A stretch of 64,000 nt of DNA from assembly GCA_017464805.1 (NCBI GenBank), contig JAFTYE010000003.1:10259-74258 (forward strand), given 5' to 3'. Shown here piece after piece: positions 27,325 through 51,196 of the stretch. Each line of letters begins with the position of its first letter. Within the stretch, counting starts at the first letter, position 1. The translations under genes were made by a program, and so were the position numbers. This stretch comes from Clostridia bacterium (lineage in GTDB: Bacteria > Bacillota > Clostridia > Oscillospirales > CAG-272). The notes under the pieces were generated by a model. That model did not search any database. It worked only from the letters and a program-made list of their open reading frames with translations, and was not told the origin of the DNA.

Positions 27325-27372
27325 AAAAACCAACCCCTTGTGTCGCATGCGCGACACAAGGGGTTGGTTTTT
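27325..27372. repeat. conserved palindromic hairpin element, copy 4 of 4
   Basis: AAAAACCAACCCCTTGTGTCGCATGCGCGACACAAGGGGTTGGTTTTT, abutting the stop of the 27372 gene. Confidence 0.8.
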
Positions 27373-28412
27373 TATTTCAGATACCCTTGTGCAAAACTGT
27401 CCGCGTCCGCAGGAGCGGTGATGGGCTCGGCGTTGCCCAGTCTGTTGTAGACCGTGGTGCTCTTGGCCTCGGCAGAAAGATTGGGCTGATCCTCAAAGTA
27501 CATCGTGTAAGAGGTCTCCACGTGCGTGAGGTTGCCGTTTCGGTCAAAATGCACGTCGTAGTAGACCTTGTCGATGTTCACCCCTGCCGCCTCGGTCTTG
27601 CCGATGCGTTCCAGAGCCGCAAGCATCTCCTCGCCCCGCATAACCATGCGGATATAAGCACCCTCGTTTGTGTTGATAAAGCCCATCTCCGAGAACCAGC
27701 TCTCGGGCACGTTCATCAGGGTGCGCTCGCCCTCTTGTACATTGTAGAATTTGTCAAGGTAATCCTGCATGGACATGGCAACCTTGACTTTTTCTCCCTT
27801 GCGCGTGATCTGGTACAAAACGCCATCCGCATACCACGCTTCCTGGGCAAGATCCGCCACCAGATCGGGATCGCCCGTCACTACGGTGTGCACATGGCCG
27901 TCGCGCTCGTGTGCCACCACGACCATGTTCTGCGTCAGAACGGTGCCGTAACCGATCATGATCATATCCACTCTCGTGGTGGTAGTCGACTGGTAGTTCT
28001 TGGCAAACTGTACAAGCGTCGCGTTTGCCTGCTCGTAAAGCTCCTTTGCCGTCTGACCGCCAAGGGTCGGGCTGTCGCCCTTTTCCACGTAGCTTTCTTC
28101 GGCCTCGCCACTCATGCCGCCGTCCTCGGTTTCGTTGCCGCCTGGGGTTTCGTTGCCGCCTGGGGTTTCGTTGCCGCCTGGGGTTTCGTTGCCGCCTGGG
28201 GTTTCGTTGCCGCCTGGGGTTTCGTTGCCGCCTGGGGTTTCGTTGCCGCCTGGGGTTTCATCACCGCCGGGGGTCTCGTCCCGATCGAAAACACTCACAA
28301 AATCCTCGATAAGATCAAAGAAGGTGTCTGCGTCCGAGAGATCACAGGAGGTCAGCATCCCGCAAGAGAAGATGCAGGTGATGACGAGAAGAAGAGAGAG
28401 AAGCCTTTTCAT
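27372..28412 (-). CDS. lipoprotein with (N/D)ETPGG tandem-repeat linker
   Basis: MKRLLSLLLVITCIFSCGMLTSC lipobox; ATG 28412 follows a GAAAGGA RBS; 8 xETPGG repeats precede a roughly 240-aa domain of unknown family. Confidence 0.8.
   Translation of the reverse strand: MKRLLSLLLVITCIFSCGMLTSCDLSDADTFFDLIEDFVSVFDRDETPGGDETPGGNETPGGNETPGGNETPGGNETPGGNETPGGNETPGGNETEDGGMSGEAEESYVEKGDSPTLGGQTAKELYEQANATLVQFAKNYQSTTTTRVDMIMIGYGTVLTQNMVVVAHERDGHVHTVVTGDPDLVADLAQEAWYADGVLYQITRKGEKVKVAMSMQDYLDKFYNVQEGERTLMNVPESWFSEMGFINTNEGAYIRMVMRGEEMLAALERIGKTEAAGVNIDKVYYDVHFDRNGNLTHVETSYTMYFEDQPNLSAEAKSTTVYNRLGNAEPITAPADADSFAQGYLK
28116..28280 (-). repeat. coding tandem repeat, 18-bp unit, 6 perfect plus 2-3 degenerate copies
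   Basis: gccgcctggggtttcgtt occurs six times without a mismatch (28137..28244), flanked by variant units. It encodes NETPGG. Confidence 0.9.
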
Positions 28413-28461
28413 AAAAATTCCTTTCCGTGCCATGCGCGTGTAATGAATGCCGTTTGACGGC

Positions 28462-29302: not shown

Positions 29303-30097
29303 ATGCCGAACGCCCAAAGAATCGTGTATTACGACGACGAGCGCACCGACGAATTTTCGGGTATTTCTCGAAAAACCGTCACCGTGGACGAAAAATTCCC
29401 CTATCTGCGCCGCAGCCTTCTTTTCCGCTTTGCTGCTTTTTTCGCCTACCGCGTGATCATGAAGCCCTTTGCATTTCTTTATTGCAAGCTTCGCTTTGGT
29501 CTGCGAGCCAAGGGCGCGGACGCGCTCCGCTCGTTCCGCAAGAAGGGCTATTACCTGTACGCCAACCATACCCTGATGGCGGGGGACGCTTTTATCCCCA
29601 ACCTGCTGGATTTTCCCCAAAAAACCTACATCGTGGTGCATCCCGATAATATCTCTCTGCCCGTGGCTGGGACATTCGTTACGATGTGCGGTGCCATTCC
29701 CACCCCCACGACTCTGCACGCACACAAGCCGTTCCGAGAAGCGCTGTCCACTCGCATTTCGGAGGGGGCGTGTGTCGTGATTTACCCCGAGGCGCATATC
29801 TGGCCGTACTGCACGCGTATTCGAGAATTTTCCGACGTTTCCTTTGCGTACCCGGTTCGAGACGGCGCCCCCGTTTTTTCTGCCACCGTTACCTATGGGA
29901 AGGGGCGCATCGGCAAGATGCCGCGCGTGACCGTGTACGTGGACGGACCGTTCTATCCCGACACGTCACTTCCCCCGAAACAGGCGCGCGCCCGTCTGCG
30001 AGACGAGGTGCATGCCGCCATGTCTGCCCGAGCCGCGGAGCACAGCACCTACGAAAGAATTCGCTACGTCCAAAGAGAGGAGAAAACCCATGAGTGA
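29303..30097 (+). CDS. lysophospholipid (PlsC-like) acyltransferase family protein
   Basis: ANHTLMAGDAF (NHx..D-type block) and VIYPEAHIW (FPEG-like block). Confidence 0.65.
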   Translation: MPNAQRIVYYDDERTDEFSGISRKTVTVDEKFPYLRRSLLFRFAAFFAYRVIMKPFAFLYCKLRFGLRAKGADALRSFRKKGYYLYANHTLMAGDAFIPNLLDFPQKTYIVVHPDNISLPVAGTFVTMCGAIPTPTTLHAHKPFREALSTRISEGACVVIYPEAHIWPYCTRIREFSDVSFAYPVRDGAPVFSATVTYGKGRIGKMPRVTVYVDGPFYPDTSLPPKQARARLRDEVHAAMSARAAEHSTYERIRYVQREEKTHE

Positions 30098-30932
30098 GCC
30101 GATCTCGGTGGTATATGCCGGAAACGAGGGCATTTTCGACGGCATTCTGATCTCGCTTTCCTCGCTCGTAGAGCACACGCCCCACCCCATACACGCCTAT
30201 GTTCTGACCATGGATCTTTCCGAGCAGAATGAGAGATTCACCCCCGTCACCGAGCACCAGCGAGCTTTTTTGGAAGAGGTGGTGCAAGAGAAACATGGGG
30301 AAAGCCGCGTGACCCTCTTGGATGTCGGTTCGCTTTACCGAAAAACCCTGTACCATTCCCCGAACGCAAAAAGCGCGTACACGCCCTACGCCATGCTTCG
30401 CCTGCTTCTTGATCGACTGCCCGTGCCGAATAAATTACTGTATCTCGATGCGGACACCTTGGTCACGGCCGACGTGACCCCCTTGTGGGAGGAGGACGTG
30501 ACGGCATACGAATTTGCCGCCGTGCTCGACTATTACGGCAAAATTTTCATGGGCTACCACTACATCAATACGGGCGTTATGCTCCTCAATCTCGACAATA
30601 TCCGAAAAACAAACCTCTTTGCGCGGTGCATCGACCGCTTATGCCGTCGCCGCATCTTTTTACCCGACCAGACTGCCCTCAATCGGCTTGTCAAACGCAA
30701 AAAGCTGCTCCCCGTGTGTTACAACGAACAAAAGCACGACCGTGACGGCACCGTGATCCGCCACTTTTCCAAGACCATCATCTGGCATCCGTTCTTTCCG
30801 TTCTTTTACACCAAAAACATCAAGCCCTGGCAGACCGAACGTGTAAGAACCGAGTTGACCGACCGCTATAACGACACCCTCGACCGTTACCTTCGCCTGA
30901 AGGAGCGAATTGAAAAGGAGATATCTGTATGA
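30090..30932 (+). CDS. glycosyltransferase family 8
   Basis: ATG 30090 follows a GAGGAGA RBS and overlaps the upstream stop by 8 nt. It has the YLDADTLV DxD motif and a YINTGVMLLNL block. Confidence 0.8.
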   Translation: MSEPISVVYAGNEGIFDGILISLSSLVEHTPHPIHAYVLTMDLSEQNERFTPVTEHQRAFLEEVVQEKHGESRVTLLDVGSLYRKTLYHSPNAKSAYTPYAMLRLLLDRLPVPNKLLYLDADTLVTADVTPLWEEDVTAYEFAAVLDYYGKIFMGYHYINTGVMLLNLDNIRKTNLFARCIDRLCRRRIFLPDQTALNRLVKRKKLLPVCYNEQKHDRDGTVIRHFSKTIIWHPFFPFFYTKNIKPWQTERVRTELTDRYNDTLDRYLRLKERIEKEISV

Positions 30933-31867
30933 CCGAGACCGTGATTCCCGTCTTTTTCTCTGCGGACGACCGCTATATCCCCTATTGCGCCGTTGCTGTT
31001 TCCTCGCTGATTGAGGGGGCAGACCCCGCTTACACCTATCACATCCACATCCTGAACACGGGCATCGAAAAGGAGAGTGCGGCGCGCGTGCGGCAGATGG
31101 AGAGGGAAAACGTCCGCATCTTTTTCGACGACGTGACCGAAGGCATGAAGCGCATCGCCGGCCGCATGGACCTGCGGGACTACTATTCCGCGTCCATCTA
31201 CTTCCGCATCTTCATTCCCGCCCTGTTCCCGCAGTATGATAAAGGCATTTACCTTGATTCCGACGTGGTCGTTTCGGGGGATATCGCTCGCCTGTTTGAG
31301 GCCTCCCTTGACGGCAACCTCGTCGGCGCGGTGCCCGACGAGGTCATCGCGTCGTGCAAGGAATTTATCCGCTATGCCGAGCGCGGTTGTGGTATTCCTC
31401 ACGGCGAATATTTTAATTCGGGTGTGCTACTGATGGATCTTGCCGCTCTGCGGGATTTTGACCTGGAGGAGAGATATATCGACCTGCTCGTCCGCTACCG
31501 CTTTGACACCGTTTGCCCCGATCAGGATTACCTCAACGTCCTTTGTCGCGGCAGGGTGCGCCTTCTCGACAGGGGCTGGAATAAAATGTCCGTCTCCCGT
31601 GACTATGACGGTCTGCCGCGTCTGGTGCATTACAACATGTTCAACAAGCCCTGGCAGTACGACGGGATCCCCTACGGTGAGCTGTTCTGGAAGCACGCCG
31701 CCCGCTCTCCCTTTTATTCCGAGATTTGTGCGGTGAGAGACCGCTTTTCCGAGGCAGAGGCCGAGGTCCACCGCAAGGGACTTTCCGAGCTTGTGCGTCG
31801 CGCTACCGAAATCGCCGACAGCGAGCGCAACTTCCGCACCGTCCTGTTTGAGGGGGTAACAGTATGA
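30929..31867 (+). CDS. glycosyltransferase family 8
   Basis: IYLDSDVVV DxD motif, YFNSGVLLMDL and PDQDYLN blocks; ATGA overlap with the upstream gene. Confidence 0.85.
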   Translation: MTETVIPVFFSADDRYIPYCAVAVSSLIEGADPAYTYHIHILNTGIEKESAARVRQMERENVRIFFDDVTEGMKRIAGRMDLRDYYSASIYFRIFIPALFPQYDKGIYLDSDVVVSGDIARLFEASLDGNLVGAVPDEVIASCKEFIRYAERGCGIPHGEYFNSGVLLMDLAALRDFDLEERYIDLLVRYRFDTVCPDQDYLNVLCRGRVRLLDRGWNKMSVSRDYDGLPRLVHYNMFNKPWQYDGIPYGELFWKHAARSPFYSEICAVRDRFSEAEAEVHRKGLSELVRRATEIADSERNFRTVLFEGVTV

Positions 31868-32685
31868 GGAGCAAAAAAACCGTTCCCCAAGCCCTCGATC
31901 GGCTTGCGGTGCTGGAACGCATCCGCGCCTATGAGGTCGAGGGTGGGGAAGCCTTCTTCCGCAACGTCGAGGAGGATCCGCCCACCCGTCCGATTCTGCC
32001 GCACGAGGTGGATTATCTGTGCGAAAAGCCGTCTACCCGCGTAAGAACCGCCCTTGCCTCTCTGATCGAGGGCGTTGCGGGCGGCATTCTGTCCCGCACT
32101 CACGAGATCACCGTGATCGGGGAAGAGTATATCGCCGCCGTATCGGGCGGCATGATCCTGACCAGCAACCATTTTGCCAAGGACGAGAGCCTTTGCGTGC
32201 GTCTTGCCGTCCGTCGTGCGGGCAGACAACATCTCTACAAGGTGGTGCGCGAGGGCAACTTCTTTATGACCGGCATTATCGGCTTTCTTCTGCGCTACTG
32301 CCGTACCCTGCCCCTATCGTCCAATCTACACACCATGCAAAAGCTCGATCGCGCGCTCGGCACGCTCCTTTCGCGTGGCGAATGCGTGCTCGTTTACCCC
32401 GAGCAAGCCATGTGGTGGAACTACAAAAAGCCCCGTGAGTACCGTATCGGTGCCTACCATTGGGCAGCCAAGTACGGTGTGCCCGTGGTACCCTGCTTTG
32501 TCACGCTTTCGCCCATCGAAGGAAAGATCGGGGGCGACGGCTTTCCCGTCATGCGGTATACGGTGCACGTCATGCCCCCCCTGTATCCCGATCCCGCCGC
32601 CACCGTGCGCGAGAATGCGGAGCGCATGCGCGCCGAGAATAAACGCCTTTGCCTTGCCAAGTACCAAGAGGTCTACGGCCAATAA
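31864..32685 (+). CDS. lysophospholipid (PlsC-like) acyltransferase family protein
   Basis: LTSNHFAKDES and VLVYPEQAMWWNY blocks; ATGA overlap with the upstream GT8 gene. Confidence 0.65.
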   Translation: MRSKKTVPQALDRLAVLERIRAYEVEGGEAFFRNVEEDPPTRPILPHEVDYLCEKPSTRVRTALASLIEGVAGGILSRTHEITVIGEEYIAAVSGGMILTSNHFAKDESLCVRLAVRRAGRQHLYKVVREGNFFMTGIIGFLLRYCRTLPLSSNLHTMQKLDRALGTLLSRGECVLVYPEQAMWWNYKKPREYRIGAYHWAAKYGVPVVPCFVTLSPIEGKIGGDGFPVMRYTVHVMPPLYPDPAATVRENAERMRAENKRLCLAKYQEVYGQ

Positions 32686-32725
32686 CAATCCCCCTTTCCG
32701 CAGTTGCGGAAAGGGGGATTGTTTT
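32686..32725. terminator. bidirectional intrinsic terminator
   Basis: CAATCCCCCTTTCCGCagttGCGGAAAGGGGGATTGtttt between convergent genes. Confidence 0.85.
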
Positions 32726-34400
32726 ATTCTGCTTCGGCTGCTTCTGCAAATTCCCACTCGACGATGGCAAAGATGCCATCCACCGCCGTGGCGGTGCAGG
32801 TCATGTTCAGAACATCGCCCGCGCGAATGAGGATCAGGGCCTCATCGGATTCGAGGTCACCCTTGAACACCCGCCCGTCCTCGGCCGTCACGTACACGGT
32901 CGGCAGACCGCCAAGCGTCACGATCTCCCGGGTCTCGACCGTCACCGTCAGCTGCTCCTCACCGCCCGTCGGGTCGTCTCCGACTCCGCTTTGGGCAAGC
33001 CGCTTGCGGTAGGCGCGCATCGCATCCTGCTGGGTCTCACCCGTTGCCACGATGCTGTAGCGTTCCACATTGACCAGTGCATACAGCTTGACAAGACCGC
33101 CGCTGTCCTTGAGGACCATGATGTAGGTCGCTTCGCCCGACACGTTGATGAGAGAGGGGAAGGAGGCCACGTAGCCCTTTTCCTGCACCTCGCCCTCGGC
33201 GGCCGCCATGGCGGAATATTCCTCCGCACCGTTGACCGAGTAGTACTTGTACTCACCCGTGCGCGCGTTGGAAAGAATGAAGCCGATGTTGCTCTCGTCA
33301 CCCGAGGTCATGGAGGTGACACCCGTGAAATACCACACATCGTCCCCCAGCACCACATAACCGAAATCGTCGGTGGTCTGCTTGCAGCCCACGTTGCCAA
33401 TGATGCTGTTGAAGAAGCCGCCGGACAGCGTTCCATGCCAGTCGTATTTCTCGCAGGCCAGATAGCCCGTGTAGACGATGTCCACCCAAGCGGGCGTTTT
33501 TTCCACCGTCATAATCTCGGAGGAGCCGTCGTGCGGGTCAAAGAGGATGACCTCGGAAACGTCCATCGCACCGAACAGGCCAACCTGCGGCTTCATGCAG
33601 GATACCACGTAGTAGGGCTTTCCGTCCTCGTTGATCTCAAAGGATACCGAGCCGAAGATCTTGGTCGGATAGGAGAAACGGAGCTTGCGAGCAAGGTCAC
33701 GGTTGAAATACGCGCTCTCGGCGTAATACATCGGCTCGGAAAGCGGCACATATTCCGCATCGCTGTTTACGGGATCTACCATCACGATGCCGGGAATGCC
33801 GTTTTTGTTATTGCCCAGCCACTTGAAAAAGCCGTTGTATTCCAGGGGTGTGACCTTGCGGGGCGAGCCCTTGTAATTGATCTGCATATACGCGGGGTTG
33901 ATGGTGTACTGGGATACCACGTCCGAAAGCGGACCCAGCGTGCGGTTGCCGATCACGATCGCGGAATCGGTGTCCATGAGCGCGATATTCGACACCTCGG
34001 TGCTTTCGGGCATATCCTCGGCAAAGTCCGCACTCTGCACGTCGATCACCGAGGCGTACTGCTTCGCGTAAAACAGGGGTGCAGAGGAAAATAGGGCGGC
34101 CAAGCCGCAGAAGAGGACGGGCAGCACGCACACGCCCACAAGGATCAGCGCGGTGCGAGAGGGCATGTTGTTTTTGAAGGATATCCCCATCACGTACACC
34201 TTTCCGCGCTTTTTGCCGCGCGCGGGCTCGCCCGACGGAAGGAGGAACGGCCACGAAAATGCCGCGATCACAAAGGTGAGAAAGAACCAAAAGCCCACCG
34301 AATAGACCGAGAGGGCAGGGAGCCCCAGGTAGAACACTGTCAGGGTAAACACGATCCCCGAGACAAGGGACGCCACGATCTTTTTCTTCGTTGTAAACAT
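32724..34400 (-). CDS. conserved-looking membrane protein with large extracytoplasmic domain, unknown function (558 aa)
   Basis: ATG 34400 follows an AAAGGAAAAA RBS. Three N-terminal TM helices are followed by a roughly 430-aa soluble domain. The longer track ORF (to 34622) reads through the leader RNA. Confidence 0.7.
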   Translation of the reverse strand: MFTTKKKIVASLVSGIVFTLTVFYLGLPALSVYSVGFWFFLTFVIAAFSWPFLLPSGEPARGKKRGKVYVMGISFKNNMPSRTALILVGVCVLPVLFCGLAALFSSAPLFYAKQYASVIDVQSADFAEDMPESTEVSNIALMDTDSAIVIGNRTLGPLSDVVSQYTINPAYMQINYKGSPRKVTPLEYNGFFKWLGNNKNGIPGIVMVDPVNSDAEYVPLSEPMYYAESAYFNRDLARKLRFSYPTKIFGSVSFEINEDGKPYYVVSCMKPQVGLFGAMDVSEVILFDPHDGSSEIMTVEKTPAWVDIVYTGYLACEKYDWHGTLSGGFFNSIIGNVGCKQTTDDFGYVVLGDDVWYFTGVTSMTSGDESNIGFILSNARTGEYKYYSVNGAEEYSAMAAAEGEVQEKGYVASFPSLINVSGEATYIMVLKDSGGLVKLYALVNVERYSIVATGETQQDAMRAYRKRLAQSGVGDDPTGGEEQLTVTVETREIVTLGGLPTVYVTAEDGRVFKGDLESDEALILIRAGDVLNMTCTATAVDGIFAIVEWEFAEAAEAE

Positions 34401-34465
34401 AGTTTTTCCTTTCTTTATTTGCTTCGTATATTGGGTTTGCAAACCGCAAAGGGGGTCACGGGTAC

Positions 34466-34508
34466 AAAAAAAGACCTTGATTGCCATGCGCACCGCAATC
34501 AAAGTCTT
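34466..34508 (-). terminator. leader (attenuator) terminator inside the 5' UTR
   Basis: Minus strand AAGACUUUGAUUGCggugcgcaugGCAAUCAAGGUCUU followed by U7. Its 5' arm overlaps the 3' strand of the putative aptamer P1. Confidence 0.7.
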
Positions 34509-34602
34509 GTTCGTCTGTGTACAGGTCACCGAAGTCGAAAAACGCCTTGTGTTGACGGTGACGAGAACGGCAGGCGTAAGCCGCCGTGAACTACTCCCTT
34601 TG
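34500..34602 (-). promoter_or_regulatory. candidate yybP-ykoY (Mn2+) riboswitch aptamer
   Basis: The minus-strand RNA is CAAAG-GGAGUAG-[hairpin CGGCGGcuuacGCCuGCCG]-[GUCACCG...CGGUGAC]-[CUGuacaCAG]-ACGAACAAGAC-UUUG. The GGAGUAG and CAAGAC loops and the P1 closure resemble the family consensus as I remember it. Confidence 0.5.
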
Positions 34603-34612
34603 TACGGCGAAT

Positions 34613-34641
34613 ATTGTAACATATTCCTGTGAGTTTGTCAA
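34613..34641 (-). promoter_or_regulatory. sigma-70-type promoter (TTGACA-17-TACAAT)
   Basis: The minus strand reads TTGACAaactcacaggaatatgtTACAAT about 10 nt upstream of the aptamer. Confidence 0.65.
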
Positions 34642-40613: not shown

Positions 40614-43600
40614 ATGAGCAAAAAACTTCTATCTCTCTTTCTCGCTGCTGTGATGCTGGTGCTGGCGATCCCCGTTGCGGTGTTGCCGACGTTCGCTACC
40701 GCGGCTGCGACCGCAACCGCAGAAGGCTTCACCACGACCTTCTCGGATGCCGAGGACATAGTCCCCGAGAATGCCAACAAGGCAGATTACACCACGGGTA
40801 CGATCATCGAGTTTCCCGCAGGCTGGGAGATCGGTGCCATGTCCGCCGCAACTTGGAATGAAAGCTACCACATCACCAACGTCTCCATGAACAACGGTGA
40901 GTGCTTCCACGGCGGCGGCGGCTGGATGGAGGGCGCCAGCGGCGGCGGCTTCTATTTCGGTAGCGGTCAGCTGGTTGCGGCCATCCGTTATATCAACGAG
41001 ACCGAGGATCTCAATGGTGACGGCGCACAGAATGCCGACGACCGTACCTTCGGCCAGTTGGATGCCAACATCATGATCCGTTACACCGCTCCCTACTTCG
41101 GTATCGTCTCCGTTGACGTGACCAAGCTGAATTTCAACAACACCTGGAACGCCATGTTTGCCATCCTGCTGAATGGCGAGCCTGTCGGTCAGTTTGACAC
41201 CGCTGATTTTGATTATGCAAGCGGTGAGGGCTGGTTCAAGCCTACGGACGTTGACTCCACCGATGCGATTGACTCCATCGTAAGTCTGGATGTCAAGAAG
41301 GGCGACAAAATCGACTTCGTCTTCCGTGGCACAGGCGTGGATTCCACTAGCGTCGCAGACTTCAACTACAACAACTGTAAGCGTCTTGCCAACGACTGGG
41401 GTTTCTCGGTTGAGTACGAGGCAGGTTATGCTCTCGTGGAGGATATGGATGCTTGGGCAAACGAGCAGACTGCCGACGTGATTGTCAATAACACCGCCGG
41501 TATCTACTTCTTCGCTTGGTTTGACGGCGATGTGCAGAAAACAAGCGGTTCTTTGTCCGACGACGCCGTTTTGAAGATCAACCCCTATCTGGTTGACAAC
41601 GGTGTCGTATCCGCTACCGATACGGTAGAGCAGGCGTTCGACAAGTGGGTCGCTTACATGAAGGATACCACCAAGATCACCTATAATAGCAACTGGTCGA
41701 TGGGCTCTATCAACGGTAGCACATATCTGCCCATTCTGTACCACGGCTTCCTGTCCGATCGCTCTGCCTTCCATCTGGACGGCACCGCGGGCGCTTATAC
41801 GTTCAGTGGCTGGGACAACCAGTACTGGATCCCCGAGGCAGGCGTGGACGCACAGTTCAACAAAATGTATTCCCTGATCACCGGGGTCATTGCTGCAGAC
41901 ACGGTCGTGTCTACCATCGAAATGAATCCTACCGATGCGATGTCTCGCGCCTCCGGTAATAAGATCACTCCCTCCACCTCCACCGGCTACGGACACGCCG
42001 GTAGCAAAAGTGGCGGTCGTACCAATCCCTTCTGGGGTCGTTCCGTCGGAAACAAGGGCGGCGTTAACATAGCGTACACCTGGACGGCTCCTACCGCAGG
42101 CTATGCAAAGTTTGAGATCGGCAGCATTCAGTATCAGGATAATGCTCCCGTTGATTTCGCCGTGATGCTCAACGGCTCGACCCAGCTCGGCTACGTGACG
42201 GTTGATCTGTCCGAGGCAGATGCGCTGGATCAGCTCAACGCCCTGCTGGCAGACTTTGAGGCTCCCGTATTCCAGGGCGATCAGGTCTCGCTGGTGTTTG
42301 CCCGTGTGAACGGCAACGCTGCCCGTGTCAACCTCACCGCCAAGGCGAACCTTGACACCTCCCGCATTCCTCCCGTATACGAGGCAGAGAACACCTGGAC
42401 GGGCGACTCCGCTTCTGCCACCGTTGCCAAAAACACGACCGATGGTATGTATCTGTTCCATTGGTACCGTAACGGCGAGCGGGTGGCTAATGGTGCCGAG
42501 TTGGCAAGCGGTGATGTTTTAAAGGTTAACCCCTACCTGATCGAGAACGGCATCGTCGCCGCAACCGACACCTATAAGGTAGCATTTGATAAGTGGATTG
42601 CCTACGTCAAGGAGACCTTCCACATCTCCTATAATAACAACTGGTCTATGGGTGCGATGAGCCCTGCCGGCATTTACGAGCCCATTCTGTATCCCGGCTT
42701 CACCTCCTATTGCTCGCTTCTGAATGTCACTGAAAGCGGCCAGGTCGGCGGTTGGGATAGCCAGTTCATGGTAACCGCGTCCTCCTTTGAAGCGATGACC
42801 AACGACACCTATAAGCGTTCGCTTGACTTTGTGAAGGCAAACGCGCTTGTTTCCGATATTGCCATCGGCTACAAGGCTGAAATGCACTACAAGGCTCTGG
42901 CCTCCACCAGCTCCGGCTGGGCCACCGGCGGTAACAGCAACGCATGGAATGATCCCTTCTGGACCCGTCCGACCAACAATGTTGGCTCCGGTAGCTACGG
43001 TGCATACGCTTGGACCGCTCCCGTGTCCGGTGTGGCCACCTTCAAGGTCAACGGCATCAACTTCAGAGAGGGCTCTGCCGGTGTGATGCCCTACGCCATC
43101 ATGCTCAACGGCGTGATCGTCCGGGATTGGACCAACTTCAACATCACCAGCTCCTCGGCACTCTCGGACATCAATGCACAGATCGGCACGGTTGAATTCC
43201 CCGTGCAGGCAGGCGATCAGGTTGCCATCGTGACCGCCCGTTACAACGGCAGCGCGACCCGTCTGGATCTCGACATCGCCGTTTCCATGGATACCACCCG
43301 TGTTCCCGTCGTGTACAAGAAGGGTGACACCGTGCTGGCGACCTACGTGGTCGAAAGAGGCGAGGCTCTGCCCCAGCTGACCGGCGTGTCCGATTTCGGT
43401 ACGGTCGGCTATCTTGTAAACGGCAAGTTCGAAAAGACCCTTCCCGAAACCGTTGAGGACGGCCTGCTTATCGAGGACTATGCTATCGAGACCTCCGTCA
43501 GCGTGACCATCAACAACCGCTACGTCATCAACGTATACGTGCAGGCCGATGAGGACGCTACCGGTGCCGGTATCATCGTAAACGGTCGTTTCATGTACGG

Positions 43601-44525
43601 CATCAAGCAGGAGGACGGCTCCTACAAGGTAGCTGCCCGGGTTTTGGCAGCCAGCCAGCTCCAGACCGCATCCTTGACCTTCAAGGCATTCCAGACCTAC
43701 GAGGACGGTTACCGCATCAGCGCGGCAGAGACCACCGTTACTTCCATCGGTCTGTTTGAAGCCTACGTTAACGGTGACTACGATGCCACCACCAAGGCGC
43801 TTGCCTCCGGTGTTCTGGACTTCGCAGAGGCACTGCGCGCTTATATGACCGGCATTGACCTGAATGCTACCGTCAAAAACCACCTCAAGGGCACCTACAC
43901 CATCTCCGGCAACTACCTCAGCGGTAAGCACGATGTTTACCTCGGCACGTTGAAGCAGATCACCACTGGTGAGGAGGCGAAGTACATCGCCAACTTCAAG
44001 GATGCCGTGTTCGCTCCCGATCCCACCGTTACCGAGGCTGACAAGGTGAAGATGGGCTTTGAGGAAGGTGTGGATCCGACCTCCGACGAATACAAGTACG
44101 CCATCCAGGCCGTTACGTTGAACCTCGAAGATCAGATCGGCTTTGCTTTCCGCGTTGTGGGCAACGGCGACAATGCTGTTGCTGACCTGCGTCCCGATGG
44201 CGTGTATGCACTGCGTGCAGACTCCGGCGTTGGTGACTATTCCTACTACGATGCTTTCCTGTATGATGGCGATGACAAATCTGCCAAGGCAATCGTTGTA
44301 GACGGTCTCCCCGCATCCCGTTACGATCTGGATCAGAACTTCACGATTGTAGAGAAGCAGGCAGACGGCAGCTACGTTGAGGTCAGTGCGACCCTGACGT
44401 ACAGCGTTAAGGCTTACGCGGTTACCACCTTTACCTTCGGCAAGGCAGACTATGCAAGCTATCTGGCGCAGGCCCTGTTCCGTCTGGGCGTACTGGCTGA
44501 CGAGTATGTAGCCGCACACGCATAA
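40614..44525 (+). CDS. large secreted repeat protein L2 (1303 aa), unknown family
   Basis: ATG 40614 follows an AAGGAGAAAAA RBS. The signal peptide is MSKKLLSLFLAAVMLVLAIPVAVLPTFA. An N-terminal module is related to the L3 N-terminus, followed by two roughly 330-aa modules and a C-terminal 407 aa paralogous to L1. Confidence 0.85.
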   Translation: MSKKLLSLFLAAVMLVLAIPVAVLPTFATAAATATAEGFTTTFSDAEDIVPENANKADYTTGTIIEFPAGWEIGAMSAATWNESYHITNVSMNNGECFHGGGGWMEGASGGGFYFGSGQLVAAIRYINETEDLNGDGAQNADDRTFGQLDANIMIRYTAPYFGIVSVDVTKLNFNNTWNAMFAILLNGEPVGQFDTADFDYASGEGWFKPTDVDSTDAIDSIVSLDVKKGDKIDFVFRGTGVDSTSVADFNYNNCKRLANDWGFSVEYEAGYALVEDMDAWANEQTADVIVNNTAGIYFFAWFDGDVQKTSGSLSDDAVLKINPYLVDNGVVSATDTVEQAFDKWVAYMKDTTKITYNSNWSMGSINGSTYLPILYHGFLSDRSAFHLDGTAGAYTFSGWDNQYWIPEAGVDAQFNKMYSLITGVIAADTVVSTIEMNPTDAMSRASGNKITPSTSTGYGHAGSKSGGRTNPFWGRSVGNKGGVNIAYTWTAPTAGYAKFEIGSIQYQDNAPVDFAVMLNGSTQLGYVTVDLSEADALDQLNALLADFEAPVFQGDQVSLVFARVNGNAARVNLTAKANLDTSRIPPVYEAENTWTGDSASATVAKNTTDGMYLFHWYRNGERVANGAELASGDVLKVNPYLIENGIVAATDTYKVAFDKWIAYVKETFHISYNNNWSMGAMSPAGIYEPILYPGFTSYCSLLNVTESGQVGGWDSQFMVTASSFEAMTNDTYKRSLDFVKANALVSDIAIGYKAEMHYKALASTSSGWATGGNSNAWNDPFWTRPTNNVGSGSYGAYAWTAPVSGVATFKVNGINFREGSAGVMPYAIMLNGVIVRDWTNFNITSSSALSDINAQIGTVEFPVQAGDQVAIVTARYNGSATRLDLDIAVSMDTTRVPVVYKKGDTVLATYVVERGEALPQLTGVSDFGTVGYLVNGKFEKTLPETVEDGLLIEDYAIETSVSVTINNRYVINVYVQADEDATGAGIIVNGRFMYGIKQEDGSYKVAARVLAASQLQTASLTFKAFQTYEDGYRISAAETTVTSIGLFEAYVNGDYDATTKALASGVLDFAEALRAYMTGIDLNATVKNHLKGTYTISGNYLSGKHDVYLGTLKQITTGEEAKYIANFKDAVFAPDPTVTEADKVKMGFEEGVDPTSDEYKYAIQAVTLNLEDQIGFAFRVVGNGDNAVADLRPDGVYALRADSGVGDYSYYDAFLYDGDDKSAKAIVVDGLPASRYDLDQNFTIVEKQADGSYVEVSATLTYSVKAYAVTTFTFGKADYASYLAQALFRLGVLADEYVAAHA

Positions 44526-46712: not shown

Positions 46713-48143
46713 ATGAAGCGCGCAAGCGGCGTCCTTCTTCCCGCATTTTCTCTGCCGGGCGATTATTCGGTCGGCTCTTTCGGGCGAGAGGCGAAAAAAT
46801 TCGTTGATTTTCTGTATGAGGGTGGCTTCTCGTGGTGGCAGGTGCTTCCGTTTTGCTTGCCCGGGGCAGGGAATTCTCCCTACAAATCCTACTCTGCCTT
46901 CAGCTATAACTACGCCTTTGTGGACCTGCCTACTCTTTACGACGAGGGGCTTTTGACCCGAGCGGAGCTGGAGGGCGCGCGCGGACGCGGCCCCTACGTG
47001 TGCGAATACGACCGTATGGAGAACGAACGCTTTGCGCTCCTCTCTCGTGCTGCCGCCCGCTTCACCGACCGTGCCGCCGTATACGATTTTTTGCAAAAAA
47101 ACCCCGCAACCGAGCAGTTCTGCCGCTTTATGGCCCTGCGCCGTGCAAACGATGACCGCCCGTGGCGGGAATTTGTGACCGACCGCTTTGACGAAAGCTA
47201 CTACTACGCCTGGGCCTTTACTCAGTATGCCTTCTGCCGCCAATTTGACGAACTGCACCGCTATGCCGCCGCACGCGGTGTCCGCATCATGGGCGACATT
47301 CCCATCTATGTGGACTACGAAAGTGCGGACGTGTACGAAAGCCGTCACCTGTTCCTTTTGCGGCAGGACAACACCCCTGCCGCCGTGGCGGGCGTACCAC
47401 CCGATTATTTCTGCGAGGACGGTCAGCTGTGGGGAAACCCCTTGTACGATTGGGAGGCCATGCAGGCGGAAAATTATGCCTGGTGGCGAGGCCGCCTACG
47501 GCATACGCTGTCGCTGTTTGATGGCGTTCGCATCGACCATTTCCGCGCGTTTGCGTCCTATTTCAGTATTCCCGCAGGTGCCGAAACGGCCAAGGAGGGA
47601 AGCTGGAAGGTCGGCCCGGGCGAGGAGCTTGTTGACCGTCTGCGCGAGGTAGCGGGAGATGCCCTGATCGTGGCGGAGGATCTGGGCGGCGAGTCGTCCG
47701 ACGTGCGAAAGCTCCTTTCGTACAGCGGCTTCCCCGGGATGCGTGTTCTGCAATTCGCCTTCCTCGGTGACATGGAGAGCCTGCACCTGCCGCATCATTA
47801 TCCGCACAATTCGGTCGCCTATACGGGCACGCATGATAATGATACGCTCCTTGGGTACCTTTTTTCGATGCCCGAGGAACGTCGCCGCCACGTATTCCGC
47901 TATTGCGGCTATAACGGCGAGGATATGCATAGCGGCTTCACGGCCGTTCTGCGTACCATGTACGCCTCGCATGCGGGATTGCTCGTTCTGCCGGTACAGG
48001 ATCTGTTGCGCTTTGGCGAGGACACGCGCATCAACCGTCCCGGTACGCCGTCGGGCAACTGGGGCTATCGTCTGACCGAGGAGCAGCTTGGCAGCCTTGA
48101 CCCTGCGCCTTTCCGAACCCTGTCCAATCTGTACGGACGATGA
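46713..48143 (+). CDS. malQ: 4-alpha-glucanotransferase (amylomaltase, GH77)
   Basis: 476 aa with SGVLLPAFSLPG, VRIMGDIPIYV, RIDHFRAF, IVAEDLG and YTGTHDNDT GH77 blocks. Confidence 0.92.
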   Translation: MKRASGVLLPAFSLPGDYSVGSFGREAKKFVDFLYEGGFSWWQVLPFCLPGAGNSPYKSYSAFSYNYAFVDLPTLYDEGLLTRAELEGARGRGPYVCEYDRMENERFALLSRAAARFTDRAAVYDFLQKNPATEQFCRFMALRRANDDRPWREFVTDRFDESYYYAWAFTQYAFCRQFDELHRYAAARGVRIMGDIPIYVDYESADVYESRHLFLLRQDNTPAAVAGVPPDYFCEDGQLWGNPLYDWEAMQAENYAWWRGRLRHTLSLFDGVRIDHFRAFASYFSIPAGAETAKEGSWKVGPGEELVDRLREVAGDALIVAEDLGGESSDVRKLLSYSGFPGMRVLQFAFLGDMESLHLPHHYPHNSVAYTGTHDNDTLLGYLFSMPEERRRHVFRYCGYNGEDMHSGFTAVLRTMYASHAGLLVLPVQDLLRFGEDTRINRPGTPSGNWGYRLTEEQLGSLDPAPFRTLSNLYGR

Positions 48144-48144
48144 A

Positions 48145-48178
48145 ACAAAAAAGAGAGAGCATCGCTCTCTCTTTTTTT
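48145..48178. terminator. bidirectional intrinsic terminator
   Basis: aaaaaAGAGAGAGCatcGCTCTCTCTttttttt between convergent malQ and s4. Confidence 0.8.
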
Positions 48179-48193
48179 GCGTTTTTGTTGGTA

Positions 48194-48484
48194 TTAGCCC
48201 ATCTGCATGGGAGGCAGCTCAATATTGGTGTTGCCGCCCCAGGAGCCGCCGTTGAGAAGGCCGCCCGAGCTCTCCTCATCCGATTCCATGAGGATGTCCG
48301 TTGGCATATCCTCCACGGATAAGGCAGGGGGAGCGTAGCTCTCGGATGCATTCATGGGAATGGGCGGAAGCTCGATCGCGCCGCTACCGCTTCCACCGCC
48401 TCCCGGCGTTTCGGAGGACAGCATCAGAATGTCCTCGGCATTCGTATAAAAGATCATGTTCGGCATGGTGTATCGGTTCTGCAT
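48194..48484 (-). CDS. 96-aa acidic protein s4, stand-alone member of the s1-s3 peptide family
   Basis: An AAGAGGA RBS lies 7 nt before ATG 48484. MQNRYTMPNMIFYTNAEDILMLSSE aligns with the s1-s3 N-termini. The track ORF extends to 48574 but that stretch is the promoter and leader. Confidence 0.55.
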   Translation of the reverse strand: MQNRYTMPNMIFYTNAEDILMLSSETPGGGGSGSGAIELPPIPMNASESYAPPALSVEDMPTDILMESDEESSGGLLNGGSWGGNTNIELPPMQMG

Positions 48485-48545
48485 GAAGAAGTCCTCTTTT
48501 CGTATCATGGCCGCTCCGCCTGTACGGCGAGCCCGAATTTCCTTT

Positions 48546-48574
48546 ATTATACCATGTCTTTCGCCTCTTGTCAA
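48546..48574 (-). promoter_or_regulatory. s4 promoter, extended -10 (TTGACA-17-TGgTATAAT)
   Basis: The minus strand reads TTGACAagaggcgaaagacaTGgTATAAT. TTGCACAAAA (48630..48621, minus strand) lies 50 nt upstream. Confidence 0.6.
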
Positions 48575-48692
48575 CCGTCATGCCGCGTTGCGCCCTCTGT
48601 TTTTTATAAGAATGGGAAAATTTTGTGCAACCTGAACAAAAAACGGACGCTATTTTTGGCAGTTGGATTTTGGGTTGAAAGGCAATATTTTA

Positions 48693-48721
48693 TTGACAAA
48701 ACAAAATAATTGTGTTATTAT
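48693..48721 (+). promoter_or_regulatory. cassette 3 promoter, extended -10 (TTGACA-17-TGtTATTAT)
   Basis: TTGACAaaacaaaataattgTGtTATTAT, 60 nt before the L3 start. A TTGCACAAAC copy sits in the 5' UTR (48747..48756). Confidence 0.6.
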
Positions 48722-48781
48722 ATATATGTGTAAAAGTCTGTGTTACTTGCACAAACAAACAACCATCGAAAGGAAAACAAC

Positions 48782-51196
48782 ATGAAACAGCGTATTTTGA
48801 GCTTTGTTTTGGCAGTTTGCATGATCGCCGTGGCTATCCCGGTCATTGCGCTTCCCGCAGTGGCTGCCGAGGGCCGTGAGGGCTTCACGACTTCCTTGGA
48901 AGTCGGTGGCGAGAACTGGCCTGTTGCTGTGACCGATGACGGCACGAACTACTATCCGGAATATCAGAACGGATGGAGTGTCGGTAAATATGAGTACGGC
49001 AAGTACTATGAGTTTAACAGCATCAGAAACGAGGGTGTCAAGCCCGCATATTTGACCTATAACCTGTTGATGTGGAACGCAAACGGTCCTTTCCTGTACA
49101 TCAGCGACGGTCGCGGCACCTTGCTGGGTGAGTCCGCCAACAATTGGGATGGCGGTACCGGCCCCGGTGCATACTATGCAGAGAAGAACAACTCGGGTAC
49201 CCCCGCAAACGGTCAGGCGTTCGTCTATACATACACCGCTCCCTACGAGGGCGTGGTTGACATCAGCGTCAAGGACCTGGTCATCTCGAACATGGGTGCG
49301 GGTACCACCGAGCCGCCTGCTCCCGAGCTTCCCGAATACTACAAGGCTTACTTCTCCATCTACGTCAATGACGTGATGGTATGGCCTACCGAGGGCGGTT
49401 CTATCACCGATCCTGATGATTGGGCTATCGTCCCCGAGATGGTAGACGGTGAGAAGGTTACCGAGGTTGTAGCCGATGCACTCAAAAACATTGAGGTTGC
49501 CGTTGGCGATACTATCCGCTTCGCAGCTGCCCGTTACAACTGCCGTGTTGCGAAGTACACCCCTATCATTACATATCACGACGATTATAACGTCGCTCCG
49601 GAGAGGAAGACCGAAACCTTTAGTAATGCCGATATCACCTGGCCCGTCAGCCGTAACACCAACGGTGTGTCCGTGCTGAAGCAGAAGGATGCCGACTGGA
49701 TCCTCGGTCAGTTCGATTCTGCAACCAAAACCTTCGTTTCCTTCGCTAACCAGAAGCGTGAGGGCTCTGAAGTTTGGGTTTGCACCGGCAACGATCCCGA
49801 TATCCTGGGCAACAACGGTATTCTGATCAGCTCCGCCTTCGCCGAGAACATCGGTGCGTTCATGGTTGGTGCTGATGAGACCAATCTGAAGCCCGCTTAT
49901 CAGTACACCGCCATGGCTACCGGTACGGCAACCGTTGGCTTGGTAGACGGCTTCGTGCTGATCGACGAGAACTCCGAGGCTGCCGCGAACGCTTCCGCCA
50001 AGATCGCTTTCTATAAGAATAATGTTCTGCTCGGCGAGGTGACCATCACCACCGATGCAAACGGTGTTGCTACCGCTTCCGCAGCTCTTTCCGCCATTGA
50101 GGTGGTAAAGGGTGACAAGATTGCCTTTGTGGCAAGTGAGGTCAGCGGCGGTGCCGTACAGGTTGCGGCCGCGCCCGTTGTACAGTACACGGCCATCAAG
50201 TCCTTTGTCGGAATAGAAACCACCGAAAAGTACGTTTTGGCTATGGATGCTGCTTCCATCATCGTGGGCGATAAGATCGCTTTGAGTTTCTCCACCTACG
50301 GCACCCGCGACGTATATCAGGATGCCGATGAAGTGAAGCTCCGCATTTGGGACAACACCGTTGAGGGTGAGAAGACCAAGGATAATGTGGTAGCCGAGAT
50401 CGTCATGGAAGCTGATGTTATGGGTGACTACGCTTATACCTGTATTTATGAGGAGTTCGCTCCCAAGCAGATGACCGATACCGTTGCTGTACAGGCATAC
50501 ATGGTTATGGGTGATGCAGAGGTGAAGGCCTCCGAGATCCAGGAGGTCAGCCTGGCCGGTATCGCATTCGAGCAGTATGAAAAGGCTGTTGCCGCCCAAG
50601 AGCAGGAGCAGGCAAACCTGATGGTTGCCGTTCTGAACTACGGCGCAGCTGCCCAGAAGTACTTTGGCTACAAGGTAGATGACCTGGCGAACAAGAACCT
50701 TCCCACGGAGCTCCAGGTAGTGGAGCAGAAACCCGACGGCTATTACAGTGCCGCTATTATGGATTCCGTTGATCCCGATGCCGCTCTTTATGCGTATTCC
50801 GAGATCACGGCCGCATCCCTGGTATTCGAAAGCACCATTGGCATTCGTGTCTACGTTGACGTAGCACCCAGCGAGGCCGACAAGCCGATCTCTATGCGTT
50901 ATGGCCTGACCTCGGAGGAGCTGGCAGGCAAGGGCGAGAAGGTTGACGGAGCTTACTCCTTTACCATCTCGGGCATTGGTCTGACCGGTCTGAAGACGAC
51001 CCGTTACTTCCAGGCGGTTGTCGAGTATACCCGTAAGGTTGGTAACAAGGAGATCCCCGCATACTACAGCGGTAACTACTTCAGCTACAGCGTAGAAGCT
51101 TACGTTGCCAGAATGGCATACGAAACCGATAAGCCCGAGTTGGCGAACCTGTTGCATGCTCTGATGAACTTGAGCGATGCCGCCGCTGCTGTTTAA
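48782..51196 (+). CDS. large secreted repeat protein L3 (804 aa), unknown family
   Basis: ATG 48782 follows a GAAAGGAAAA RBS. The signal peptide is MKQRILSFVLAVCMIAVAIPVIALPAVA|AEG. It has two copies of the YxYTA...GDxIxF module shared with L1/L2 and a distinct C-terminal region. Confidence 0.85.
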   Translation: MKQRILSFVLAVCMIAVAIPVIALPAVAAEGREGFTTSLEVGGENWPVAVTDDGTNYYPEYQNGWSVGKYEYGKYYEFNSIRNEGVKPAYLTYNLLMWNANGPFLYISDGRGTLLGESANNWDGGTGPGAYYAEKNNSGTPANGQAFVYTYTAPYEGVVDISVKDLVISNMGAGTTEPPAPELPEYYKAYFSIYVNDVMVWPTEGGSITDPDDWAIVPEMVDGEKVTEVVADALKNIEVAVGDTIRFAAARYNCRVAKYTPIITYHDDYNVAPERKTETFSNADITWPVSRNTNGVSVLKQKDADWILGQFDSATKTFVSFANQKREGSEVWVCTGNDPDILGNNGILISSAFAENIGAFMVGADETNLKPAYQYTAMATGTATVGLVDGFVLIDENSEAAANASAKIAFYKNNVLLGEVTITTDANGVATASAALSAIEVVKGDKIAFVASEVSGGAVQVAAAPVVQYTAIKSFVGIETTEKYVLAMDAASIIVGDKIALSFSTYGTRDVYQDADEVKLRIWDNTVEGEKTKDNVVAEIVMEADVMGDYAYTCIYEEFAPKQMTDTVAVQAYMVMGDAEVKASEIQEVSLAGIAFEQYEKAVAAQEQEQANLMVAVLNYGAAAQKYFGYKVDDLANKNLPTELQVVEQKPDGYYSAAIMDSVDPDAALYAYSEITAASLVFESTIGIRVYVDVAPSEADKPISMRYGLTSEELAGKGEKVDGAYSFTISGIGLTGLKTTRYFQAVVEYTRKVGNKEIPAYYSGNYFSYSVEAYVARMAYETDKPELANLLHALMNLSDAAAAV

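Follow-up and report, generated by a model that had tools for sequence, protein, structure and literature searches.

The s4 gene and its expression signals

We examined a 64-kb stretch of DNA (the window; 64,000 nt of contig JAFTYE010000003.1, assembly GCA_017464805.1) from a Clostridia bacterium of the CAG-272 lineage, and specifically s4, a small minus-strand gene that lies convergent with malQ and divergent from L3, the gene of a large secreted protein. Exactly four members of one family of small peptides are encoded in the window (s1 to s4; Table 1). A large Sec-secreted protein gene precedes s1, s2, and s3 by 11-30 nt on the same strand, while s4, as an earlier note on this DNA had remarked, is the only one of the four without such a gene before it. 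The s4 product shares the small, acidic, Cys-free, and signal-less character of s1-s3, and five head residues (Y-x2-P-x9/10-D-x2-M-x-S) are invariant and evenly spaced in all four peptides and in both of the units that make up s4. At 96 amino acids (aa), s4 is twice the usual family size because it is internally duplicated.

The open reading frame (ORF) of s4 as listed begins with a TTG that is itself the -35 hexamer of the s4 promoter, and translation therefore starts further downstream. Comparison with relatives mapped the start codon to ATG 48484, supported both by the ribosome-binding site in front of it, with GAGG at the same position 5′ of the start codon in the DNA of s4 relatives, and by the homologues in databases, four of six of which start with MQN[RK]Y. 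The NCBI model of s4 is eight codons longer (104 aa, MIRKEDFF...; 48485-48508), an extension that is not conserved in relatives. The promoter matches the consensus at 12 of 12 positions and is kept in all seven aligned loci; promoter, ribosome-binding site, and terminator are all conserved among relatives. The terminator hairpin, which lies between an A-run and a T-run and has a folding energy of -19.0 kcal/mol on the minus strand (z = -6.0) and -19.7 kcal/mol on the plus strand (z = -3.8), can therefore terminate malQ and s4 alike. Rfam searches over 48100-48850 gave terminator-like matches only, all of them sub-threshold. Moreover, s4 has at least eight homologues, those with 46-59% identity retain the full architecture, and the ratio of nonsynonymous to synonymous substitution rates (dN/dS) was 0.16-0.42 in pairwise comparisons among six orthologues. 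Hence s4 is a real, conserved gene, and the 96-aa product with the family head, the promoter of its own, and the terminator common to s4 and malQ, which the earlier note had read from the DNA, all withstood comparison.

The s4 product contains 13 Asp/Glu and a single Lys/Arg, has no Cys and no signal peptide, and has an isoelectric point of ~4. An AlphaFold model (predicted local distance difference test, pLDDT, 57.6; predicted template modelling score, pTM, 0.13) predicts a peptide without a fold of its own. Several readings of the peptide were discarded: a Sec signal peptide, as charged residues lie inside the head; a sortase LPXTG signal, as IELPPIP lacks the T-G; and an AgrD-like precursor, as s4 lacks Cys and the scanned ORFs showed no AgrB.

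Internal duplication of s4

The two s4 units follow the same plan, duplicated whole: YxxPxh, D-I-L-M-x-S, a Gly-rich spacer, and IELPPxP. When Y5-M44 is aligned with Y50-M95, the shift is 45 residues throughout, and the conserved Y, P, D, M, and S of the two units match up (Y5/P8/D18/M21/S23 and Y50/P53/D63/M66/S68). The Gly/Ser linker GGGGSGSG (aa 28-35), the repeated pair IELPPIPM (aa 37-44) and IELPPMQM (aa 88-95), and a second head-like stretch echoing the first (EDILMLS, aa 17-23; TDILMES, aa 62-68) had been picked out previously and were all recovered here; YTMPNM (aa 5-10) and YAPPAL (aa 50-55), repeated at the same 45-residue offset, go beyond that description. A local alignment of the two halves scored 63, compared with 26.6 ± 5.7 for shuffled sequences (0 of 5000 shuffles reached 63), which, together with the five head residues present in both units, upheld the view of s4 as a family member with an internal duplication. 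A repeat at the DNA level was not found between the halves, and the duplication is therefore old.

The double form, at 95-98 aa, was present in all loci with an L3 at least 60% identical (the window, L001, L186, and L188), and also on the short contigs L002-L004 (100 and 108 aa), on which L3 is absent or truncated. Remoter relatives had a single unit at the s4 slot (L005, 41 aa; L006, 49 aa; L187, 44 aa; L029, 57 aa; L102, 48 aa; L059, 46 aa), exemplified by MKYTEPKILWLALAADALMASGDSDGDNTQGGGWDGDGGYIELPPIPQN, and unit 2 of s4 resembles these outgroup peptides (...GGW...IELPPIP). The ancestral or outgroup state at the slot is one unit of 41-57 aa, and the 96-aa form is a fused tandem duplicate limited to the closest relatives. 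We also observed two head-type peptide genes in tandem, unfused, in other loci (L106 3030-3320; L138 4475-4751; L089 66-372; L027 ~2.5-2.9 kb), and the fused double unit could plausibly have arisen from such an arrangement.

A conserved module of s4, L3, and s3

An s4-type gene was divergent from a pair of L3-type and s3-type genes in 10 loci, with L3 identities of 28-100%, and malQ was convergent on the s4-type gene in eight of the 10 (the exceptions being L102 and L059). The earlier note had called s4 stand-alone, a description that these loci contradict, as s4 is the constant divergent partner of the L3-type and s3-type genes. In seven metagenome loci with synteny and in three remote genome loci, the slot held an intact small gene and no L remnant. 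No L gene was lost at the s4 locus, a possibility that the note had raised as something to be looked for in relatives, and s4 is not a decayed fragment of a longer gene. The arrangement is an old conserved three-gene module.

The intergenic region has two consensus-like promoters, which are conserved, and between them a block with the pattern TTTTGTGCAAnnTGAACAAAAAA...ATTTTTGGC was near-invariant across seven loci, the L3 proteins of which are 48-100% identical. Additionally, the sequence TTGCACAAAC at 48747 in the L3 5′ leader is reverse-complementary to TTGTGCAA at 48623. The block is a candidate operator, and block and leader together look like an operator or leader-RNA element; neither had an Rfam match. 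A LysR-type regulator is conserved two genes from s4.

The L and s genes of the window

Neither s1-s4 nor L1-L3 had a meaningful match in Pfam or NCBIfam, and neither L3 nor L2 matched any PDB sequence. Foldseek searches with the L3 model (pLDDT 76) yielded only generic matches to beta-sandwich, FN3, and CBM-like folds, at a TM-score of ~0.1, and identified no catalytic fold in the model. The near-identity of s1 and s2 (48 of 53 residues), together with the paralogy of L1 and L2, indicates a recent tandem duplication of the whole L-s pair. L1 and L2 also carry internal repeats with a module of ~280 residues.

Elsewhere in the window, we noted a lipoprotein with eight tandem ETPGGN repeats (27372-28433, minus strand) and, near the L genes, two GT8 glycosyltransferase genes and an acyltransferase gene in a row (30012-32685), upstream of the gene for a family-less 632-aa membrane-associated protein (32724-34622, minus strand); this region possibly is a cell-surface glycan locus. 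To the right of the window, after addB (L190 13445-22037), were four large proteins of 637-740 aa without a confident Pfam match. In the first three, the N-termini are lipoprotein-like and the C-termini resemble one another (...F[ST]F[DE]..V.[TK]....S...[FV]..Y.G..Y..[EF]....[EY]R), and one of these proteins has GGETPGG repeats.

Table 1. Positions in the window of s4, its signals and units, and the L and s genes
Feature	Position	Strand	Remarks
L1, 1058 aa	36756..39932	plus	Paralogue of L2, 47% identity
s1, 53 aa	39956..40117	plus	23 nt after L1
L2, 1303 aa, Sec signal	40614..44525	plus	ATG 40614, ribosome-binding site AAGGAG
s2, 53 aa	44554..44715	plus	28 nt after L2
Bidirectional intrinsic terminator, common to malQ (+) and s4 (-)	48147-48177	both strands	
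s4 ORF as listed	48194..48574	minus	TTG start at 48574
s4 coding sequence, 96 aa and stop	48194..48484	minus	Start ATG 48484 (MQNRY...PPMQMG)
s4 unit 2 (aa 45-96), head-like YAPPALSVEDMPTDILMES (48281-48337)	48197..48352	minus	Gly-rich spacer with GGSWGG 48233-48250, tail IELPPMQM 48200-48223
s4 unit 1 (aa 1-44), head MQNRYTMPNMIFYTNAEDILMLS	48353..48484	minus	Spacer GGGGSGSG 48380-48403, tail IELPPIPM 48353-48376
s4 ribosome-binding site AGAGGA	48492-48497	minus	7-nt spacer to ATG 48484
s4 promoter TTGACA-17-TGgTATAAT	48574..48546	minus	12/12 consensus positions, TG extension
Conserved intergenic block TTTTGTGCAA-nn-TGAACAAAAAA...ATTTTTGGC	48621..48660		Between the divergent s4 and L3 promoters
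L3 promoter TTGACA-17-TATTAT	48693-48721	plus	
L3 promoter and 5′ leader	48693..48781	plus	Leader (48722-48781) strongly conserved across the seven loci
L3, 804 aa, Sec signal	48782..51196	plus	Chain of beta-sandwich modules, C-terminal helices (model)
s3, 48 aa	51215..51361	plus	18 nt after L3

A wider class of head-bearing peptides

An exhaustive profile search over 1.84 billion proteins (E <= 1e-3) returned 36 representative clusters. Nearly all are 37-98 aa long and combine the head MKKYxxPEhEhh...DhIMxS with acidic tails of varied sequence; two were much longer (348 and 4,941 aa) and were partial matches only. The pattern across the 36 representatives is leader-like, in that the head, with its motif YxxPx(L/M), is conserved and the tails are variable. 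Moreover, a degenerate DNA pattern for the head, scanned against 185,579 species genomes, recovered ~50 head peptides in species-representative Clostridia genomes. Forty-one of 50 followed a same-strand ORF of at least 250 aa, with a median gap of 18 nt, and among upstream ORFs of this kind with a complete N-terminus, 21 of 25 start in a signal-peptide-like manner. The head defines a broad class of acidic peptides, 35-60 aa in length, among gut Clostridia. The s4 subfamily itself is rare, and a scan of the genome collection with the s4 alignment returned no relative. NCBIfam gave no meaningful match for ten diverse class members, no description was found in the literature or in Pfam and NCBIfam, and the class is apparently undescribed so far.

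Head-like peptides (MKKYIKPEMEICVV...M.LS...) were also seen in Prevotella/Bacteroidaceae genome loci (L047, L051, L053, and L080), 21-86 nt after large proteins with C-termini that resemble sorting domains of the type IX secretion system (T9SS) (...KGIYIVNGKKVxxK); these Bacteroidales peptides are possible relatives of the Clostridial class. Separately, peptides of 82-134 aa with the head MKKYEKPE...EG(I/K)(F/Y)M(A/G)SG followed by Cys-containing regions (L012 3605-4009; L071 2629-2877, Roseburia porci) may represent a different leader-bearing class with the same head type.

A kinase-PqqD-S24-ABC-NTP_transf_5 cassette beside related peptides

Distant members of the class lie beside a gene set of the kind found around peptides that are made on ribosomes and modified after translation (RiPPs), including a putative RiPP recognition element (RRE), of which nothing was found near s4 in the window or its ±10 kb flanks. 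Specifically, this cassette adjoins a head peptide in 24 loci. In the four genome loci (L027, L079, L044, and L035), the peptide lies next to an HPrK-like kinase, a PqqD protein, an S24-like peptidase, and an ABC exporter. The remaining 20 came from a metagenome search that used the kinase as bait and gave at least 466 loci, 80 of which were fetched for inspection. In loci of at least 9 kb, the order kinase-PqqD-S24-ABC, usually then NTP_transf_5, recurs (PqqD PF05402, 63 bits; PF14907, E 1e-48), and the head-type peptides in 20 of the 80 (e.g., MKKYERPELDVELFDVEDVITASG...) typically come directly after large signal-peptide proteins, which have Flg_new, GLUG, or CBM_X2 domains. When these 80 loci were searched with L1-L3 by tblastn, no cassette had an L-like protein beside it.

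The cassette kinase is a P-loop protein of 230-240 aa with best matches, below cut-off, to ScmC and HprK_rel_A, while the best NCBIfam match of the PqqD protein is the lasso PqqD chaperone, with weak matches to ScmD and PqqD_rel_X. The peptidase is an S24/S26-like serine peptidase without a hydrophobic N-terminus and is therefore probably cytoplasmic. The ABC protein (~555 aa) aligns from residue 5 onward to position 128+ of peptidase-containing exporter models, and is therefore an exporter without the N-terminal C39 peptidase domain. No description of this cassette was found in the literature. We observed it recurrently in gut, rumen, and fermentation metagenomes (L027 5659-6376; L111 6001-10387; L106-L185 generally), where it frequently adjoins capsule and cell-wall polymer genes (Wzz/CpsD-like, CpsB, LCP).

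The heads of the window peptides are related to those of the cassette-adjacent peptides. Profile-profile alignment (hhalign) of the window family with the latter gave a probability of 95.9% (E 5.8e-9, 26 columns), and of the s4 family alone 71% (E 3.6e-5). Furthermore, of 726 small window ORFs, the four that ranked highest under a hidden Markov model (HMM) built from cassette-adjacent peptides only were s3, s4, s1, and s2. The s4-type tails (Gly/Asp-rich, with Trp and a short C-terminus) also resemble cassette-adjacent tails such as ...GGWGDIL, ...DDGWY, and ...DGWTDI.

Proposed function of s4 and alternatives

The place of s4 in the three-gene module, its duplication, and the homology of its head to cassette-neighboring peptides elsewhere are established by the comparisons above. 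Building on them, we propose, tentatively and at a little short of an even chance, that s4 is a double leader-core precursor that is recognized by the RRE-bearing cassette, processed, and exported in trans. In each unit, the head (Y-x-x-P-x-(L/M), ~8 residues, then D-I-L-M-x-S) would be the handle for a PqqD-type RRE; behind it come a flexible acidic spacer rich in Gly and a tail that is short and conserved, (I/L)-x-(L/F)-P-P-x-P. The gene would be strongly transcribed from its consensus promoter, divergently from L3-s3 and probably under a common operator. The unstructured product would then be bound, head first, by the RRE of a maturation set with genes at another place in the genome, consisting of the HPrK-like kinase, PqqD, the cytoplasmic S24-like serine peptidase, the ABC exporter, and the NTP_transf_5 nucleotidyltransferase. 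The peptide might be phosphorylated or nucleotidylated. Cleavage would fall behind S23 and S68, the small residue that is invariant in the M-x-S box, as at a site of the -3/-1 type; export would then release two related acidic ...IELPPxP peptides, the tails of which would probably engage L-type surface proteins or the cell envelope outside the cell. In this proposal, RRE binding, any chemical modification, where cleavage occurs, export, a connection to L proteins, and the presence of a cassette in this genome are all inferred. Action in trans, one half of an earlier suggestion, is plausible and fits the wider class because the maturation genes there are shared at one locus and the peptide genes are dispersed; the other half, that s4 might act on its own, found no support.

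Several observations weigh against this proposal. The HMM of cassette-adjacent peptides scores s4 at just 5.8-7.3 bits (E 0.1-0.35 over the 726 ORFs), and the connection of s4 to the cassette therefore rests on profile-profile similarity and intermediate sequences. Genes for PqqD, kinase, S24, peptide-type ABC, and NTP_transf_5 proteins were all absent from the 64-kb window with its ±10 kb flanks (84 kb together) and from L001, L005, and L006. These tests comprised tblastn and HMM searches with the four cassette proteins in the window and the three loci, and HMM searches also of the ±10 kb flanks, L189 and L190, and all were negative. The window ORFs likewise included no RiPP enzymes, only housekeeping, sugar, and glycosyltransferase genes. 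In addition, a head peptide occurs in the flanks of only about one quarter of the kinase loci, and the kinase and S24 peptidase match their own families below curated cut-offs. Finally, the s4 tails have neither Cys nor an obvious modification motif, and the tight coupling of L and s genes across the class is left unexplained by a plain RiPP model.

That coupling is the strength of the main rival explanation, which we consider unlikely: that s4 and its relatives are unmodified, disordered acidic partners of the L surface proteins, serving as escort, assembly factor, or anchoring adaptor. A conserved L domain would gain a strand or helix from the head, the tail would give specificity, no dedicated maturation machinery would exist in this lineage, and s4 would be bivalent, bridging two partners. 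Consistent with it, the short distance to a large same-strand gene in 41 of 50 cases suggests stoichiometric co-expression, and those large genes mostly (21 of 25) begin like secreted proteins. L3 is always accompanied by an s4-type gene, and tail class tracks the class of the neighboring L protein, such that all loci matching the L3 C-terminal region have ...D-L-x-I-x-x-I-x-x-I tails, although this co-variation is possibly mere co-inheritance of the module. The absence of a cassette within 84 kb and the predicted lack of an s4 fold are likewise as expected of such partners. However, the L proteins have Sec signals and the peptides have neither a signal peptide nor a membrane segment, which would put the two in different compartments unless another exporter moves the peptide. 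The repeated linkage of the class to a PqqD/kinase/peptidase/exporter set is also unexplained on these terms.

Quite improbable, in our assessment, is a role for s4 as a signaling or regulatory peptide, for instance a secreted pheromone or an intracellular modulator that tunes expression of the divergent L3-s3 operon. Its strong own promoter facing away from L3-s3, the near-invariant intergenic block and the inverted TTGTGCAA/TTGCACAA elements of the L3 5′ leader, the conserved LysR-type regulator, and a size and acidic tail reminiscent of exported signaling precursors would all suit such a role. Yet no receptor, histidine kinase, or RRNPP-type regulator is adjacent to s4, the peptide has no Cys or other cyclization residue, no AgrB-like gene occurs among the ORFs scanned, and most family members sit in structural L-s pairs rather than in regulatory loci. 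The chance that s4 is instead a non-functional remnant, whether a decayed L fragment or a chance ORF next to a chance promoter, is close to negligible. Only the small size and the low-complexity Gly-rich stretches suggest it, and it is refuted by the intact orthologues at the slot in 10 loci, being further at odds with the conserved start codon and expression signals, the low dN/dS, the five invariant head residues kept in both units, and the lack of any similarity to L proteins.

The RRE-dependent proposal can be extended to a widespread, so far undescribed two-part system of gut and rumen anaerobes, a broader idea that we regard as somewhat unlikely. Many large Sec-secreted surface proteins would each have a leader peptide of their own, one cassette would serve all these peptides in trans, and the modified and exported, L-matched tails would anchor, activate, or assemble the surface proteins, akin to a sorting tag with a gene to itself. 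Two peptides would then be used by the L3 module, of which s4 is the fused, bivalent form of one.

If the precursor model is true, s4 would exemplify the duplication of a whole leader-plus-core unit inside one bacterial precursor. The class, which counts hundreds of loci among the Clostridia of gut and rumen and possibly has relatives after Bacteroidales T9SS cargo genes, would constitute a new RRE-dependent peptide system and would tie ribosomal peptide maturation to large cell-surface proteins instead of antibiotics. It would also give a function to many "hypothetical" genes of 40-60 aa, which are often missed by gene callers, and would explain the "incomplete lasso clusters" that genome-mining tools report in rumen bacteria. 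Even on the most cautious reading, the s4 gene model is fixed in its start codon, promoter, and terminator, and the gene belongs to an old conserved module.

Comparison with known systems

The closest resemblance is to lasso peptides with a split B1 (PqqD-type RRE) of the Firmicute, kinase-bearing type (paeninodin; BsfA/BsfB1/BsfK), which share with s4 a short precursor with an aromatic-x-x-P-x-L leader motif. Lasso leaders carry YxxPxL at positions -17 to -12, Firmicute lasso leaders read MKxWxxPxhExLxI, and HPrK-like kinases phosphorylate lasso-type precursors when co-expressed with the B1 RRE (PMC10368454; PMC7533575). Against that motif, s4 unit 2 reads YAPPAL, close relatives read YIAPRL, and s4 unit 1 reads YTMPNM. 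The cassette likewise has common accessories of lasso clusters: its PqqD protein is best matched by the lasso chaperone, and with it come a kinase of the HPr-kinase-like type, an ABC exporter, and a nucleotidyltransferase (PF14907). However, neither an Asn-synthetase-like cyclase nor a B2 transglutaminase-type protease was present in the scanned window ORFs or the cassette loci, an S24-like serine peptidase being found in that place. The s-peptide head also exceeds the lasso motif by ~5 residues and has D-h-h-M/T-x-S at its end, not T-x. Additionally, the Gly1...Asp/Glu7-9 ring pattern is lacking, since S23 is followed by SETPGGGGS and S68 by DEESSGGLL, with no acidic residue at 7-9, and the s-peptide genes are dispersed and tied to large secreted-protein genes. 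For want of cyclase, B2, and ring pattern, we rejected a lasso peptide reading of s4. "Incomplete lasso clusters" have been reported in rumen genomes (PMC7533575), and these may include the cassette and peptide class described here.

The HPr-rel-A (TIGR04352/TIGR04353) and SynChlorMet (TIGR04249/TIGR04248) systems also combine HPrK-like and PqqD proteins, and ScmC and HprK_rel_A are the models that best match the cassette kinase. The scores, which come from cassette proteins of other loci and not from window proteins, nevertheless fall far below the NCBIfam equivalog cut-offs (ScmC, 33.5 vs 125 bits; HprK_rel_A, 24.4 vs 200; PqqD_rel_X, 17 vs 35), and the cassette has no radical-SAM/SPASM genes, such that these systems are distant relatives only. 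To our knowledge, no function has been assigned to either.

Cyanobactin precursors of the PatE type have multiple cores with repeated recognition sequences, and s4 is similar in being one translated precursor with two recognition elements, each with a product-like segment. In s4, however, the whole leader is repeated, not merely short flanking recognition sequences, and no cyanobactin-type protease or heterocyclase accompanies it. Double-glycine-leader peptides are likewise small, leader-bearing, and signal-less, with an ABC exporter that has its counterpart in the loci related to s4; they differ in that the s-peptide head is not followed by a GG, GA, or GS site at a fixed distance and the cassette ABC protein has no C39 peptidase. 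The system is not a lasso one, and s4 appears to be a variant of leader-type precursor peptides, in a class that seems undescribed.

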